A stretch of DNA of 28,300 bases from a virus (Duplodnaviria; Caudoviricetes), in the IMG/VR virus record IMGVR_UViG_3300044676_004790, positions 1 to 28,300 of that record. One strand, written 5' to 3'. Below are positions 60 to 6,414 of the stretch, one piece after another; within the stretch, counting starts at the first letter, position 1, and each line of letters opens with the position of its first letter. The position numbers and the translations under genes were made by a program. Under the pieces are notes generated by a model. It ran no database searches. It was given only the letters and a program-made list of their open reading frames with translations, and was not told where the DNA came from.

Positions 60-114
60 GCGAATAGTTCAGCAATGGATGGGCTGAATAAGTTCTTTAA
101 AATTATTAATAAAC

Positions 115-226
115 GACCGGTTGGCGCGTATTATGTTTCGCACAATATGCATTATCTTCCTAGGCAGACACATTTTCTGAATAAGTAGGAAGGTTTAAAT
201 CTCCAGCCGGTTTCACACTAACCGGC
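115..226 (+). ncRNA. Putative structured 5' leader (multibranch, with alternative pairing)
   Basis: Stems 115-124/203-212, 126-135/141-150 and 156-162/186-192, plus an alternative stem 206-212/220-226 ending 2 nt before ATG 229. Confidence 0.4.
135..162 (+). other. Weak dif-like XerC/XerD site
   Basis: GTTTCGCACAA-TATGCA-TTATCTTCCTA in 11-6-11 layout, with a good XerC-like arm and a degenerate XerD-like arm. Confidence 0.3.
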
Positions 227-2045: not shown

Positions 2046-2835
2046 TGGTGGGCATTGGTACACTTCCGAAGGGAAGGCCATGCACACCATGCCTCTAGCC
2101 AAGGGAGATGGTGAACGGAATACAACTCTCCGAGATGCCAAGAAATTGGGATTATACCCATCGGTTACAACTCTTCTTGGCCTGTTTGCCAAGCCAGGTC
2201 TTGACCGCTGGAAACAGGATCAGCTTCTTAATATAGCATTCAGCAATCCTCCGAAAGCCGGCGAAAGTTACGAAGACTATGCAAACCGATGCCTCGTTGA
2301 GCATGAAAAACCTGTCGAAGAAGCGGCAGACTTTGGCACTAAAGTTCACGATGCAATCGAGTCCTATTGGAAAGGGAAGCATATACCGGATGAGTTATTG
2401 GAATACATCCAACCCGCTCTCGATTGGAAACAGGAAAACCAACTGTCCTTCATCGAATTTGAGCTAATGCTCGTATCAAAAGCTCATGGGTATGCGGGAA
2501 CAGTCGATATCGTAGGTCGTGGGAAAGATAATCAGATGTTCATTCTCGACTGGAAAACTCGTAAGACTCAAGAGGGAAAGAAAGTAACCGCATATGATTT
2601 TCAGATTCATCAGATTGCGGCATATGCCGCTTGCTATTGGGGCGAGGAAAATGTTCTGAACCATCGGGTACATGGAGCGAATGCTTTTATATCTAGCACG
2701 GAAAAAGGTCGCTTTGAAGTAATTCGCTACAGCCCTGAAGACTTAGCCAAAGCATGGAAAGTTTTTCGCTCAATCTGCGAAGTATGGAGATCTCTGAAAG
2801 GATATGACCCCCGAACCCATGCCAACAATGGATGA
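2011..2835 (+). CDS. PD-(D/E)XK (Cas4/RecB-like) exonuclease
   Basis: 'PSVTTLL', 'GTKVHDAIE', 'YAGTVD', 'ILDWKT' and 'QIAAYA'. GTG start with strong GGAGGT SD. Confidence 0.88.
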   Translation: MAILTEKPKRGSGGHWYTSEGKAMHTMPLAKGDGERNTTLRDAKKLGLYPSVTTLLGLFAKPGLDRWKQDQLLNIAFSNPPKAGESYEDYANRCLVEHEKPVEEAADFGTKVHDAIESYWKGKHIPDELLEYIQPALDWKQENQLSFIEFELMLVSKAHGYAGTVDIVGRGKDNQMFILDWKTRKTQEGKKVTAYDFQIHQIAAYAACYWGEENVLNHRVHGANAFISSTEKGRFEVIRYSPEDLAKAWKVFRSICEVWRSLKGYDPRTHANNG

Positions 2836-2956
2836 GGAATATGAGCACGACGAGTACCACGACGAACTCATTGCCGATCGCCGGAGAAGGCGGGGAGAAG
2901 GTTGGCGGAATCCAAAACCCGAAGAGGAGGAAGAAGATGAAGAGATTCAAGAGTAA
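2828..2956 (+). CDS. 42-aa highly charged peptide (MDEEYEHDEYHDELIADRRRRRGEGWRNPKPEEEEEDEEIQE)
   Basis: Open frame from ATG 2828 to TAA 2956 that overlaps both neighbours by a few codons. Confidence 0.5.
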   Translation: MDEEYEHDEYHDELIADRRRRRGEGWRNPKPEEEEEDEEIQE

Positions 2957-3143
2957 GAGCTACCTTCTGCCCGACTCGGTGATGGAGACTAATATCTGCG
3001 TGAATATGCCTGATAAAATTAAGGAAGCCCTGAAAAGGCGGTCTTATAGTCAGAAACAAGGCGTGTCCAGGTATGTATTAAATCTAATTACGGCGGATCT
3101 CCGCAAGGTAGATAAGGAAATAGAGAAATACTTAGGGGAATGA
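2937..3143 (+). CDS. Ribbon-helix-helix (Arc/CopG-like) regulator
   Basis: 'NICVNMPDKIKEALKRRSYSQKQGVSRYVLNLITADL' has a beta-alpha-alpha pattern. ATG 2937 is preceded by GAGGAGG. Confidence 0.6.
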   Translation: MKRFKSKSYLLPDSVMETNICVNMPDKIKEALKRRSYSQKQGVSRYVLNLITADLRKVDKEIEKYLGE

Positions 3144-3322
3144 ATCCGGATGCTTGGTACAGTTTCCATTTCGAGGTCAAACAAGCTTACGACCTCTTTT
3201 GGACAAAGAACCAACTGGCTTACGAAGATGGGCGGATCGTTAGGACCAAAATTCCGAGGGTCCGCCCAAAAGCCAAGCATGAATTAGATTTCAGAAACAA
3301 AGGGAAAAAGATAGATGGCTAA
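3140..3322 (+). CDS. Hypothetical protein
   Basis: 60-aa ORF coupled to both neighbours by overlap. Confidence 0.6.
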   Translation: MNPDAWYSFHFEVKQAYDLFWTKNQLAYEDGRIVRTKIPRVRPKAKHELDFRNKGKKIDG

Positions 3323-4031
3323 ATTTATCAGTTTATTTGCCGGGGTCGGTGGATTCGATCTAGGCATGGAACAGGCGGGGCATGAATGCGTTGCCCAAGT
3401 GGAATGGGATAAGAATGCGGCGGGTGTATTAAAGCACAGATGGCCGAATGTTCCCTTGTTCTGCGATGTATCAAAAGTATCGGCGGATGATCTGCCCGAT
3501 GCGGATTTTATAACATACGGATTTCCATGCCAGGACTTGAGCGTGGCCGGTAAAAGAGAGGGATTAGATGGAAAACGATCAGGATTATTCTATGAAGCAA
3601 CTAGACTTATTCGGGAACTGCGAACCCGAGGATGCGGGCTACGCTTTGCACTGGCAGAAAATGTTGCCGGGCTGTTCAGTGCAGATGATGGTGTCGCACT
3701 TGCAAGGTGCATCCGAGAGCTACTCGACTGCGGGGCTTGTGAAACAGGATGGAGGTTACTCGACAGCCAGTATTTCGGTGTGGCCCAAAGACGGAAGCGC
3801 GTGTTCATTGTCTCAGATTTTGGAGGCGAATCCGTTGACGAAATACTCGCTATCACCGAAAGCCTGCCAGGGCATCCTGCGCCGAGCCGAGAAGCGGGGA
3901 AAGGAACTGCCGGAGATGCTGGAGCGGGCTTTACAGCGAGTAGCTTCGGAGGGTACGAACAAGGATGCGGAACTCTGCGAAGCCAAGGCGGAGATTTAGG
4001 CGGAGGGAGTGAGATATTAGTGGGACGATAA
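3315..4031 (+). CDS. C5 cytosine DNA methyltransferase, N-terminal catalytic part (motifs I-VIII)
   Basis: Motif I 'SLFAGVGG', IV 'GFPCQD', VI 'ENV' and VIII 'QRRKRVF'. Ends at TAA 4029-4031 without motifs IX and X. Confidence 0.92.
   Translation: MAKFISLFAGVGGFDLGMEQAGHECVAQVEWDKNAAGVLKHRWPNVPLFCDVSKVSADDLPDADFITYGFPCQDLSVAGKREGLDGKRSGLFYEATRLIRELRTRGCGLRFALAENVAGLFSADDGVALARCIRELLDCGACETGWRLLDSQYFGVAQRRKRVFIVSDFGGESVDEILAITESLPGHPAPSREAGKGTAGDAGAGFTASSFGGYEQGCGTLRSQGGDLGGGSEILVGR
3568..3999 (+). CDS. Nested alternative-frame MTase polypeptide (M.EcoHK31I beta-like)
   Basis: 143-aa ORF in the +1 frame entirely within the MTase, with GAGGG upstream of the ATG. C-terminal 'SLSQILE...KYSLSPKACQGILRRAEKRGKELPEMLERAL'. 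Confidence 0.65.
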   Translation: MENDQDYSMKQLDLFGNCEPEDAGYALHWQKMLPGCSVQMMVSHLQGASESYSTAGLVKQDGGYSTASISVWPKDGSACSLSQILEANPLTKYSLSPKACQGILRRAEKRGKELPEMLERALQRVASEGTNKDAELCEAKAEI

Positions 4032-4039
4032 ATTGTCAG

Positions 4040-4318
4040 ATGAACTCGGAGTCGAGCAATCTGCAAATGGGAGTCCGAGAAAACCTAACCGTCCGCCGAC
4101 TCACTCCAATCGAATGCGAACGCCTACAGGGATTCCCTGATAATTGGACAGCCGAAAAGATGGAACTGATCCTTGAGGGGAACGAGTGGAAGGCTACCGG
4201 CAAGGTGGTCAAACAGGCAGATGGTCCACGCTACAAGGCGATGGGCAATGCCGTCACCGTCAATGTGGCTGAGTGGATAGGCAAACAGATTGGAAAGGTA
4301 TTAAATGAAACGAAATAA
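4040..4318 (+). CDS. C5 methyltransferase C-terminal part (motifs IX-X)
   Basis: 'RRLTPIECERLQGFPDNWT' (IX) and 'RYKAMGNAVTVNVAEWIG' (X), in the third frame, which is open from 4013. Confidence 0.85.
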   Translation: MNSESSNLQMGVRENLTVRRLTPIECERLQGFPDNWTAEKMELILEGNEWKATGKVVKQADGPRYKAMGNAVTVNVAEWIGKQIGKVLNETK

Positions 4319-4454
4319 AATGCAGAAACAACTCAAACAGCCCCTTCATCATAAGGGCTATCTAACCAACCCACATGGGTATAACACGCCAATAATGACA
4401 ACCAAGGCTCCGGCAGTAGCACCTGAGCTTAAACCCATGAAGGGGGAGAAATGA
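4305..4454 (+). CDS. Hypothetical 49-aa protein
   Basis: MKRNKMQKQLKQPLHHKGYLTNPHG...KGEK; its stop overlaps the next ATG (ATGA). Confidence 0.45.
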   Translation: MKRNKMQKQLKQPLHHKGYLTNPHGYNTPIMTTKAPAVAPELKPMKGEK

Positions 4455-4663
4455 ATACAGACTTTAAAATGGGCAGAGGCTTACCTCGAGGGGAGAAAGT
4501 AGTCGTAAAGGTGGGAAGCAGACAGGCGGACATCCTACTCGACTTGGATAAGATGGTTTGGGCGGTGACTTTCGATAAGTCCGAATTACCAGTCCTAGAA
4601 TATCCGACTCTACAGAATGCGGTAATGTCCGCAGAAACAATTTTAAAGGAGGATCGGAATTGA
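4451..4663 (+). CDS. Hypothetical protein
   Basis: 70 aa, GGGGAG SD, overlaps the polymerase start. Confidence 0.65.
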   Translation: MNTDFKMGRGLPRGEKVVVKVGSRQADILLDLDKMVWAVTFDKSELPVLEYPTLQNAVMSAETILKEDRN

Positions 4664-6414
4664 TCGCCCTGGATGTGGAAACAGTTTGGTCGAAGAGTTA
4701 CTCAGTGGCCACGATGGGACTCGACCGATATGCCAAGCACCCTGACTTCAGAGTAACCATTGTTTCCTTGGTAGCCGATGACGGATTTGAATGGGTAGGA
4801 GATCCGAGGGACTTACCGGTCGAACGCTTAAACGGCCAATCAATCTGCGCCCATAATGCTGAGTTTGATTCGGTATGTTGCAGAATGGCAATGGCGAGGG
4901 GGCAGATGCCACAGTTCACTCCCAAGGAATGGATTTGCACGGCGGATATGGCAAGCTGGCATCAGTTGCCGAGGTCATTGGCGGGATGTTATAAGGAACT
5001 ATTTGGCGAGGAGTTGAACAAGGATGCCCGTAATGAAATGAGCGGATTGCGACCCGAGGAGATCTTTCAGAATGAATCGTTTAAGCAGTATGCACTCGGC
5101 GATTCCCGAGCGTGTATTCGCATTTACAATGAATTAAAATTATCCTTCCCCGAAAAGGAATTTCTATTGTCCGCATTTACCCGAAGGACTGCAAGCCGAG
5201 GGATGGCAATCGATCAGAAACTTTGCCAGGAGTATATTAATAAGACCAAGGAGATCATGAAAGAGGTCGAAGACTTTCTCCCTTGGGTCGGTCCACAGGG
5301 CGGGGAGCCAACATCTCCGATGGCATTGGCAGATTATTTAAAGATGCAGAATGTCGAGCCTCCTGTCTCCACCAATGAAGGTGATGAGGAAACCATTTTA
5401 TGGAAGGCTAGGAATCCACAATATGCCCCAATCCTTGATGCAATGAGCCGATGGAGGAAAGCGAATAAGGCCAATAAAACCTACACCGCTATGATCCTTC
5501 GAGTTCGACCCGACCATCGAGTTTCCACCCGTCTGAAGTACTGCGGTGCGCCGCATACCGGTCGCTGGAGTGGAGCGGGCGGGTTAAACTTTCAGGGCAT
5601 TCCTCGGGACGAGGTGGAAGGTACATCGGCCAAGAAATGTCTGACTCCTGGTAAAGGCAGAGTCATGGTCTCTGCGGATCTCTCACAAATAGAACCCCGT
5701 GTTTTAGCGTACTTGTGCGGGGACTTTGATTTCCTTGGTTTGGTCAGAGGCGGGATCGACTTATACGAGGCACATGGCCGAGCGACTGGACTTTACAACG
5801 AGGATGAACCAATGAAGGATTTAGCCCCCGAACTTCGCCATCTCTGTAAGGCTCGTGTGTTGGGCTTGGGCTATGGATGCGGACCAAAGAAATTCGGCCA
5901 AGTGGCACAGGCTTTGACCGGTGGGAAATTAAAAATGACCGATTCTGAGAGCCGAAAACAGGTCAAAGATTTCCGCCAGCAGAATCCAAAAATTGTCGAG
6001 CTTTGGAAAAAGTGTGAAGACCACATCCGAGAGGAGGCAAGGCAGACTCCCGAGTGTGCAGTGATGCACATGAGATCCGGCAATGTGATCAGATATTTTA
6101 ATGTAAAAGATAATGGCCGAGAATTAACCGGTCAGAAGGTAAGAGGGCAAGGGTCGATGAAATTATATGGGGGCTTGCTTACCGAAAACCTAGTCCAGGC
6201 AACAGCGAGAGATATTATGGCGGATTCGCTCCTCAAGATTGAAGCCGCTGGACTCCCTGTTGTCCTCCATGTCCACGATTCGGTCACAGTCGAAGTTGCG
6301 GAGAATGAGGGACAAGCGGCACTCGATTTAATGATCAAACTATTAACCGAAGAACCTCTCTATTTGCCAGGGCTCCCCTTGGCGGCAGAGGGGGAAATCA
6401 AAAACCACTACTAA
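4660..6414 (+). CDS. polA: Family A DNA polymerase with 3'-5' exonuclease
   Basis: Exo I 'LDVET', Exo II 'HNAEFD', Exo III 'YALGD'; 'TGRWS', motif A 'DLSQIEPRV', motif B 'RHLCKARVLGLGYG' and motif C 'VHDS'. TTG start after AAGGAGG. Confidence 0.95.
   Translation: MIALDVETVWSKSYSVATMGLDRYAKHPDFRVTIVSLVADDGFEWVGDPRDLPVERLNGQSICAHNAEFDSVCCRMAMARGQMPQFTPKEWICTADMASWHQLPRSLAGCYKELFGEELNKDARNEMSGLRPEEIFQNESFKQYALGDSRACIRIYNELKLSFPEKEFLLSAFTRRTASRGMAIDQKLCQEYINKTKEIMKEVEDFLPWVGPQGGEPTSPMALADYLKMQNVEPPVSTNEGDEETILWKARNPQYAPILDAMSRWRKANKANKTYTAMILRVRPDHRVSTRLKYCGAPHTGRWSGAGGLNFQGIPRDEVEGTSAKKCLTPGKGRVMVSADLSQIEPRVLAYLCGDFDFLGLVRGGIDLYEAHGRATGLYNEDEPMKDLAPELRHLCKARVLGLGYGCGPKKFGQVAQALTGGKLKMTDSESRKQVKDFRQQNPKIVELWKKCEDHIREEARQTPECAVMHMRSGNVIRYFNVKDNGRELTGQKVRGQGSMKLYGGLLTENLVQATARDIMADSLLKIEAAGLPVVLHVHDSVTVEVAENEGQAALDLMIKLLTEEPLYLPGLPLAAEGEIKNHY

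Follow-up and report, generated by a model that had tools for sequence, protein, structure and literature searches.

Genetic setting and layout of the locus

The DNA analysed here, called the window below, is the whole of a 28.3-kb IMG/VR virus record (linear; completeness estimate 76%). It encodes an exonuclease, PolA, a primase/helicase, a terminase and a major capsid protein, and a C5-methyltransferase gene is located between the exonuclease and PolA. A scan of 32 ORFs of the window revealed no restriction enzyme partner for the methyltransferase. An ORF at 1489-1947, upstream of the exonuclease, encodes the C-terminal helix-turn-helix domain of DnaA (PF08299, E 4e-15). Several palindromes are depleted in the window, with observed/expected ratios of 0.04 for ACGT, 0.08 for CGCG and 0.28 for GCGC; this depletion of CG-containing palindromes suggests host restriction or methylation pressure. 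Metagenome runs containing the stretch 2800-5000 are mostly from estuary and marine samples (20 runs), and none of them is an RNA run.

The methyltransferase is distributed over three ORFs in the three forward frames (Table 1). This layout, described in the first-pass annotation as ORFs of 238 aa, 143 aa (nested, frame +1) and 92 aa, was confirmed by the ORF coordinates and by the split of Pfam PF00145, of which positions 2-160 match the N ORF (E 1.9e-47) and positions 269-324 match the C frame (E 1.4e-11). The +2 frame was also correctly described as open from 4013, after a TGA at 4010-4012, and as overlapping the end of the first ORF, the overlap comprising the last 5 codons and the stop. 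The N-chain stop is TAA 4029-4031, ATG 4040 follows 8 nt downstream of it, and a second ATG of the C piece is located at 4067. In the C piece, 18 residues stand ahead of motif IX. The columns that are invariant in an 86-row alignment are intact in the window (G10, P71-C72-Q73, E115-N116-V117 and Q158/R160/R162). The catalytic PC, ENV and QxRxR are all present, as expected of motifs I-VIII of a C5 methyltransferase (PF00145 / TIGR00675); the gene does not encode a canonical monomer, given that motifs IX-X lie in a different frame, behind a stop and off the chain carrying I-VIII.

Table 1. Features of the methyltransferase locus (positions are those of the window).
Feature	Position	Strand	Description
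N chain, C5-methyltransferase alpha gene	3315..4031	+	238 aa; motifs I-VIII and a complete variable-region cassette, followed by 4 out-of-frame residues and the stop
SD-like site	3554..3562	+	5 nt upstream of the beta ATG; -8.0 kcal/mol against an anti-SD motif
Nested +1 ORF, putative beta subunit	3568..3999	+	143 aa; lies wholly within the N ORF
Conserved core of beta	residues ~70-125		CSLSQILE...YSLSPKACQGILRRAEKRGKELP
Cassette A, TRD-like module	3930..4014	+	FTASSFGGYEQGCGTLRSQGGDLGGGSE; 98% identical to L001 and L004
Out-of-frame junction	4005..4014	+	end of cassette A / middle of cassette B; best 10-nt match, 9/10
Cassette B, 3' half	4015..4085	+	100% identical to L015, L020, L029 and L037, in which it is in frame
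C piece	4040..4318	+	92 aa from ATG 4040; tail of cassette B, then motif IX (RRLTPIECERLQGFPDNWT) and motif X (GNAV)

Cassette structure of the variable region

In relatives with ~95% identical N parts (loci are numbered with the prefix L), the variable region separating motif VIII from motif IX ranges from 133 to 359 residues and is built from recurring modules of 25-45 residues. Intact relatives encode one long alpha chain consisting of motifs I-VIII, 1 to about 8 shuffled cassettes (the number per relative was read by eye) and motifs IX-X. Of these tandem exchangeable modules, the window retains one whole and one half. Two cassette modules of the relatives align with variable-region modules of SPbeta MtbP, and each cassette would represent a target recognition domain. 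Bacillus phage enzymes are described in a review (PMC12707154) as arrays of recognition domains protecting against many restriction systems. By analogy with these multispecific enzymes, an intact alpha and beta pair would likely methylate several short sites and so shield the phage DNA from host restriction. Out-of-frame cassette joins were seen in two cases, the window and its close relative L409, in which the join is a different one and cassettes are duplicated.

Origin and reality of the break

Up to 4014 the window agrees with L001-L004, which carry cassette A, and from 4005 onward with 11 loci carrying cassette B in frame. Compared in 10-nt stretches, the donors match best at the junction (9/10 for L020 and L041, 8/10 for L010), and the crossover would have occurred within 4011-4014. 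The break between the N chain and the C piece is an out-of-frame join of two variable-region cassettes, likely made by recombination. Among the alternatives named in the first-pass annotation, a frameshifting deletion between TRD modules matches this sequence, an A/B cassette join at the best 10-nt match. The locus is free of private substitutions and other decay.

Two further origins were considered and rejected. A single-base loss in GGG 4022-4024 was dismissed because the relatives are identical at these bases, the change being instead a joining of cassettes. Simple-repeat phase variation at the window locus was dismissed as well, since neither a homopolymer nor a dinucleotide tract is present at 3990-4050. 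A repeat search of 3200-4500 returned just short chance-like pairs.

The first-pass annotation had also allowed for an assembly indel and had proposed a read check around 4005-4045. In the follow-up, the junction was spanned in 4/4 runs by a contig with 0 differences, and no indel was found at the site; the count corresponds to 4/6 runs examined out of the 20 that contain the stretch, X1 and X2 being without cover at 4018-4068 and thus uninformative on the junction. The junction contigs extend over 3885-4060 in X3 (depth 6.1), 3976-4042 in X4 (15.8), 3977-4042 in X12 (8.0) and 3900-4042 in X13 (6.8). The X3 contig reaches 126 and 46 nt to either side and is the only one to pass the span rule of 31 nt each side; those of X4, X12 and X13 have 28 nt on the right and contain junction-specific 31-mers. 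In-frame alleles coexist in the same runs. In X12, cassette A continuing has a depth of 7.7 and cassette B in frame a depth of 8.5, so that, as far as rough contig depths can tell, the junction allele about equals the in-frame cassette-A allele (8.0 vs 7.7); in-frame alternatives reach 21.9 in X13 and 64.2 in X4. The four positive runs come from four studies released in 2018 and 2023; the three of 2018 possibly belong to a single campaign, and one of the four may be the source sample of the window.

Exact and degenerate scans of IMG/VR and JGI contigs for the junction gave no hit (the window's own record was perhaps outside the set). The window join was found in 0/26 JGI contigs with the end of cassette A, 24 of which are in frame (15 by script, 9 by eye), the other two being L409 with its own out-of-frame join and L428, which is of low quality. 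Likewise, neither the join nor an in-frame upstream stop occurs in the 17 viral contigs with cassette B, 13 of which reach PCQ while 4 run off. Motif IX is reached by 28/30 cassette-A proteins, and 0/30 end like the window's. The exact N chain and the 92-aa C piece are absent from a 15-billion protein collection, and the 83-aa form from ATG 4067 was found on one 1066-nt contig.

An assembly chimera or sequencing indel as the maker of the junction would fit the empty contig scans, the two runs without cover and the possible dependence of the positive runs on one campaign or on the source sample. Against it stand the 0-difference contigs across the junction in all four covering runs and the missing indel, and we regard such an artefact as extremely improbable. 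The break is real and occurs in natural DNA.

The nested beta ORF

The protein of the nested ORF has 1348 relatives among 1366 candidates, and the nested ORF fits the family profile in all 72 complete close loci classed as continuous. Matches to the beta family were obtained in 142/50,697 phage records and in 532/72,556 plasmid records, in the latter mostly beneath P1-like methyltransferase genes; an estimated 2900 or so IMG/VR stretches contain the beta core motif. The dmt gene of coliphage P1 (L082, 11711-12199) hides an unannotated beta-family frame of 163 codons, and a Vibrio phage gene does likewise.

The conserved frame changes along the overlap. By a crude allele count over 39 distinct close relatives, the nonsynonymous/synonymous ratio at 3568-3800 is 0.35 for alpha vs 0.81 for beta, and the conserved frame there is alpha. 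At 3801-3920 it is beta, with a ratio of 0.38 vs 0.98 for alpha and 1.03 for the third frame, counted over the same 39 relatives in the same crude way.

Searches with beta gave no match in Pfam or NCBIfam, no meaningful match among PDB sequences and a weak match in PHROG (phrog_16143, E 5.8e-4). An AlphaFold model of beta alone was poor (pTM 0.39), the core helices having a pLDDT of about 90, and Foldseek with this model against the PDB gave no match at E 0.001. The beta core aligns weakly (probability 16%, E 0.0016) with residues 239-267 of SPbeta MtbP, directly after motif VIII. Beta would thus likely supply the segment which is found directly after motif VIII in single-chain enzymes.

On the evidence of its sequence relatives, the nested ORF is a real, more-than-chance family member and a trait of the whole family. 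The first-pass annotation had compared it to the nested subunit of M.EcoHK31I, a proposal that gains support from the 1348 relatives, from the frame switch in 3801-3920 and from a short likeness to an EcoHK31I beta primer. We infer that beta is translated and bound to alpha.

Three further observations concern this frame. Residues 11-15 of beta (3598-3612) read QLDLF, which we take to resemble the sliding-clamp binding motif QL[S/D]LF. LSPKACQGIL in the beta core (3844-3879) is similar enough to LTPIECERLQ of motif IX for MAFFT to align both. In L048, L174, L192 and L358, the beta frame continues into cassettes and motifs IX-X, with some of the joins at G runs.

Continuity and dispensability among relatives

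A FastTree phylogeny built from 291 distinct N chains places the window in a clade of 54 (support 0.96) as its sole split gene, and all 53 nearest relatives are continuous. Among 80 close loci, 0 are split, 72 are continuous, one is a beta-C fusion and 7 are incomplete. By comparison with these relatives, the break is young and not the design of the family.

To describe the gene slot, 80 loci related by PolA were collected, of which 45 cover both exonuclease and PolA and 35 were set aside for not covering both. The methyltransferase gene is missing from 28 of the 45, continuous in 16 and replaced by another C5 methyltransferase in one; at a PolA identity of at least 90%, 18/27 are without it. 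The gene is an optional accessory. Some methyltransferase-less phages have a small unrelated ORF starting with MAIT in the slot (L455 3980-4174, L457 2847-3041, L469 2968-3120), which indicates that the slot is exchangeable.

Split genes elsewhere in the family

The five scans yielded 317 distinct variable regions, 260 continuous, 53 split and 4 beta-C fusions, a split share which is inflated because one scan was aimed at the split clade (34/80 loci split in that scan). Thirteen of the splits are sporadic, and 12/13 have a G7+ or (GA)n tract, compared to 17/260 continuous genes; sporadic splits bearing such tracts may be phase variants or sequencing errors.

In the 40 remaining split loci, which were compiled manually, the break is conserved. 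Most of them fall in one clade, to which the cluster J mycobacteriophages are sister, and 31 of 36 tips in the split-clade portion of the tree are split. A start codon (ATG/GTG/TTG) is situated at most 8 codons from the conserved head of the C chain in 39/40. After exclusion of 5 members that have an additional break or lack a start, the other 35 give median dN/dS values of 0.10 (C chain; from 135 unsaturated pairs out of 595), 0.28 (beta) and 0.19 (N chain). The C chains have 43-219 residues ahead of motif IX (34 measured), each with a leading cassette. The N chains of L328, L330, L332, L337, L356 and L357 resemble that of the window in ending with cassette A and a short hydrophobic tail behind it.

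Judged by these ratios, a separate phage clade keeps the three-piece form under purifying selection, so that an enzyme of three chains is very likely workable in the methyltransferase family. The question of the first-pass annotation, whether homologs keep the split, thus receives a divided answer: the 53 nearest relatives do not, and the separate clade does. The window does not belong to this clade, as its N chain groups elsewhere and its C piece has neither the conserved head nor a whole cassette.

The conserved three-chain split is carried by L279, L283 and L328-L402 (~40 IMG/VR loci). The C-chain start overlaps the N-chain stop in several of the clade loci, as TAATG in L344 and L345 and as ATGA in L339 and L353. 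In cluster J (L083 2323-3627, L085, L086, L087), the methyltransferase is in three pieces with an unannotated nested beta; the first cassette has a poly-G tract of varying length among phages, and the middle cassette is out of frame.

Use of the broken gene

ATG 4040 corresponds to a Met inside the cassette, and its SD is weak (-4.0 kcal/mol); many genes of the window phage have a weak SD or none. With moderate confidence, we interpret the allele as a young, standing, off or weak form of an optional two-chain enzyme. Cassette shuffling between phage genomes occasionally joins modules out of frame, and the alpha gene is broken at 4011-4014, likely through such a recombination of two cassettes. 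What is left is a 238-aa chain without motifs IX-X and a 92-aa piece with them, the latter makeable only if ribosomes re-initiate at a Met inside the cassette, where the SD is weak. The broken allele would likely leave the optional enzyme off or weak, and it likely persists unselected because the gene is optional.

For this interpretation speak the junction anatomy, the recent origin of the split, the dispensability of the gene, the poor outcome of distal M.SssI splits, the lack of an evolved start at ATG 4040 and the 18 residues before motif IX compared to 43-219 in the stable clade. Hardly any complementation or activity, or none, was obtained when M.SssI was split in its distal variable region (PMC3404938). 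Against it, the allele is not rare where found, as seen from the four junction contig depths; no decay is apparent, all motifs and one whole cassette are kept, an ATG stands 8 nt past the stop, and weak or missing SDs are common in this phage; in addition, three pieces are maintained under purifying selection in a separate clade, several of its N chains ending in cassette A.

An alternative is a working three-chain, one-cassette methyltransferase, for which re-initiation at ATG 4040 (or 4067) would be required and in which the N chain, beta and the IX-X piece would assemble. The list of parts is complete and undecayed, the allele occurs in four runs of four studies, and the conserved split clade with its low dN/dS, together with the likewise split cluster J mycobacteriophages, sets a precedent, including the six N chains with cassette A and a hydrophobic tail. 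Fragment complementation is reported for M.AquI and for engineered splits in PMC3404938. The layout being under selection in another clade, function at the window is possible. However, there is no selected start or coupling overlap, the SD is weak and the C piece lacks the leading cassette found on all 34 measured clade C chains; moreover, the gene is dispensable, so persistence of the allele needs no function. We therefore hold a working three-chain enzyme to be possible, though rather unlikely. A three-chain enzyme as the evolved design of the locus is not supported: the gene is the only split one in its clade of 54, and the ATG is an internal cassette Met.

A third route to activity would be a -1 ribosomal frameshift in 4013-4029, by which the N and C pieces would be rejoined at a low rate to give some full-length alpha. 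The frame is open from 4013, and a single-tRNA slip is possible at G-GGA (4022-4025) with a GGAGG 15 nt upstream; the fusion suggested by the first-pass annotation finds no support beyond this slip. The annotation had rightly noted that a classic slippery heptamer is lacking (no X-XXY-YYZ in 4013-4029). In addition, in-frame relatives use the GGAGG simply to encode Gly-Gly of cassette A, and the site is conserved in no relative. The combination of a conserved slippery heptamer and a stimulator, which characterizes programmed -1 frameshifting, is thus absent, and we consider rejoining by this route improbable.

The allele as an off or weak form would be an ordinary broken accessory gene if inactive, and the stable three-chain clade would then be the better subject. 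If active, it would be a natural test of split-gene origin and a minimal three-part methyltransferase scaffold: with doubtful prospects, an active enzyme made from three polypeptides in all three forward frames of 1 kb, present as a standing allele in coastal phage populations. This would amount to an independent recent birth of a layout which has become fixed in another clade, where the N chain likewise stops after cassette A. A stable-clade gene or Omega gp127/gp128 is more likely than the window to be a working three-chain enzyme. The window shows that module shuffling generates split alleles, one of which persists in nature alongside intact ones. The family unites two known tricks, the nested out-of-frame subunit of EcoHK31I and the exchangeable recognition-module arrays of the Bacillus multispecific enzymes. 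Thousands of phage genes are concerned, and their second chain is mostly unannotated, P1 dmt included.

Comparison with known systems

A literature search at the level of search results, which did not extend to REBASE or to the original papers on EcoHK31I and AquI and those of Trautner, returned no description of a three-chain C5 methyltransferase or of phage nested beta genes.

M.EcoHK31I of E. coli HK31 (YGGCCR) is, according to PMC2836561 and PMC3404938, an alpha/beta C5-methyltransferase with beta wholly inside alpha in another frame. The window shares a second chain encoded entirely within alpha in another frame, which is conserved in its case. Primer-derived residues 60-69 of EcoHK31I beta (EEECTLSQVL) resemble residues 79-86 of the window beta (CSLSQILE), a short match to a 10-residue primer-derived stretch. 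EcoHK31I beta ends in motif IX (primer NWTLIDSEQ), which EcoHK31I alpha is without, whereas in the window motif IX is on alpha/the C piece, and 0/44 aligned beta relatives carry it. By the primer likeness and the different place of motif IX, the window beta appears to resemble the core of EcoHK31I beta minus motif IX. In contrast to M.EcoHK31I, the window has a shuffled cassette array and a broken alpha, and no restriction enzyme partner among its 32 ORFs.

M.AquI (CYCGRG) is a two-gene C5-methyltransferase (PMC3404938). Compared to it, the window has a small piece with just 18 residues ahead of motif IX, a split that is polymorphic and a third, nested chain; a fixed split with the distal variable region and motifs IX-X on a conserved gene of their own, the M.AquI type, is not what the window has.

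SPbeta MtbP and the relatives of the window gene have alignable variable-region modules. SPbeta MtbP is one chain, whereas in the window family a second frame encodes the segment after motif VIII, and phages exchange cassettes by shuffling.

A similar layout is that of cluster J (Omega gp127/gp128, Dove 107/108) and the uncultured clade, which have, like the window, an N chain, a nested beta and a separate IX-X chain. They differ from it in forming a separate clade, in which the break is old and conserved and the C chain carries whole cassettes, while the break of the window is young and lies inside a cassette.
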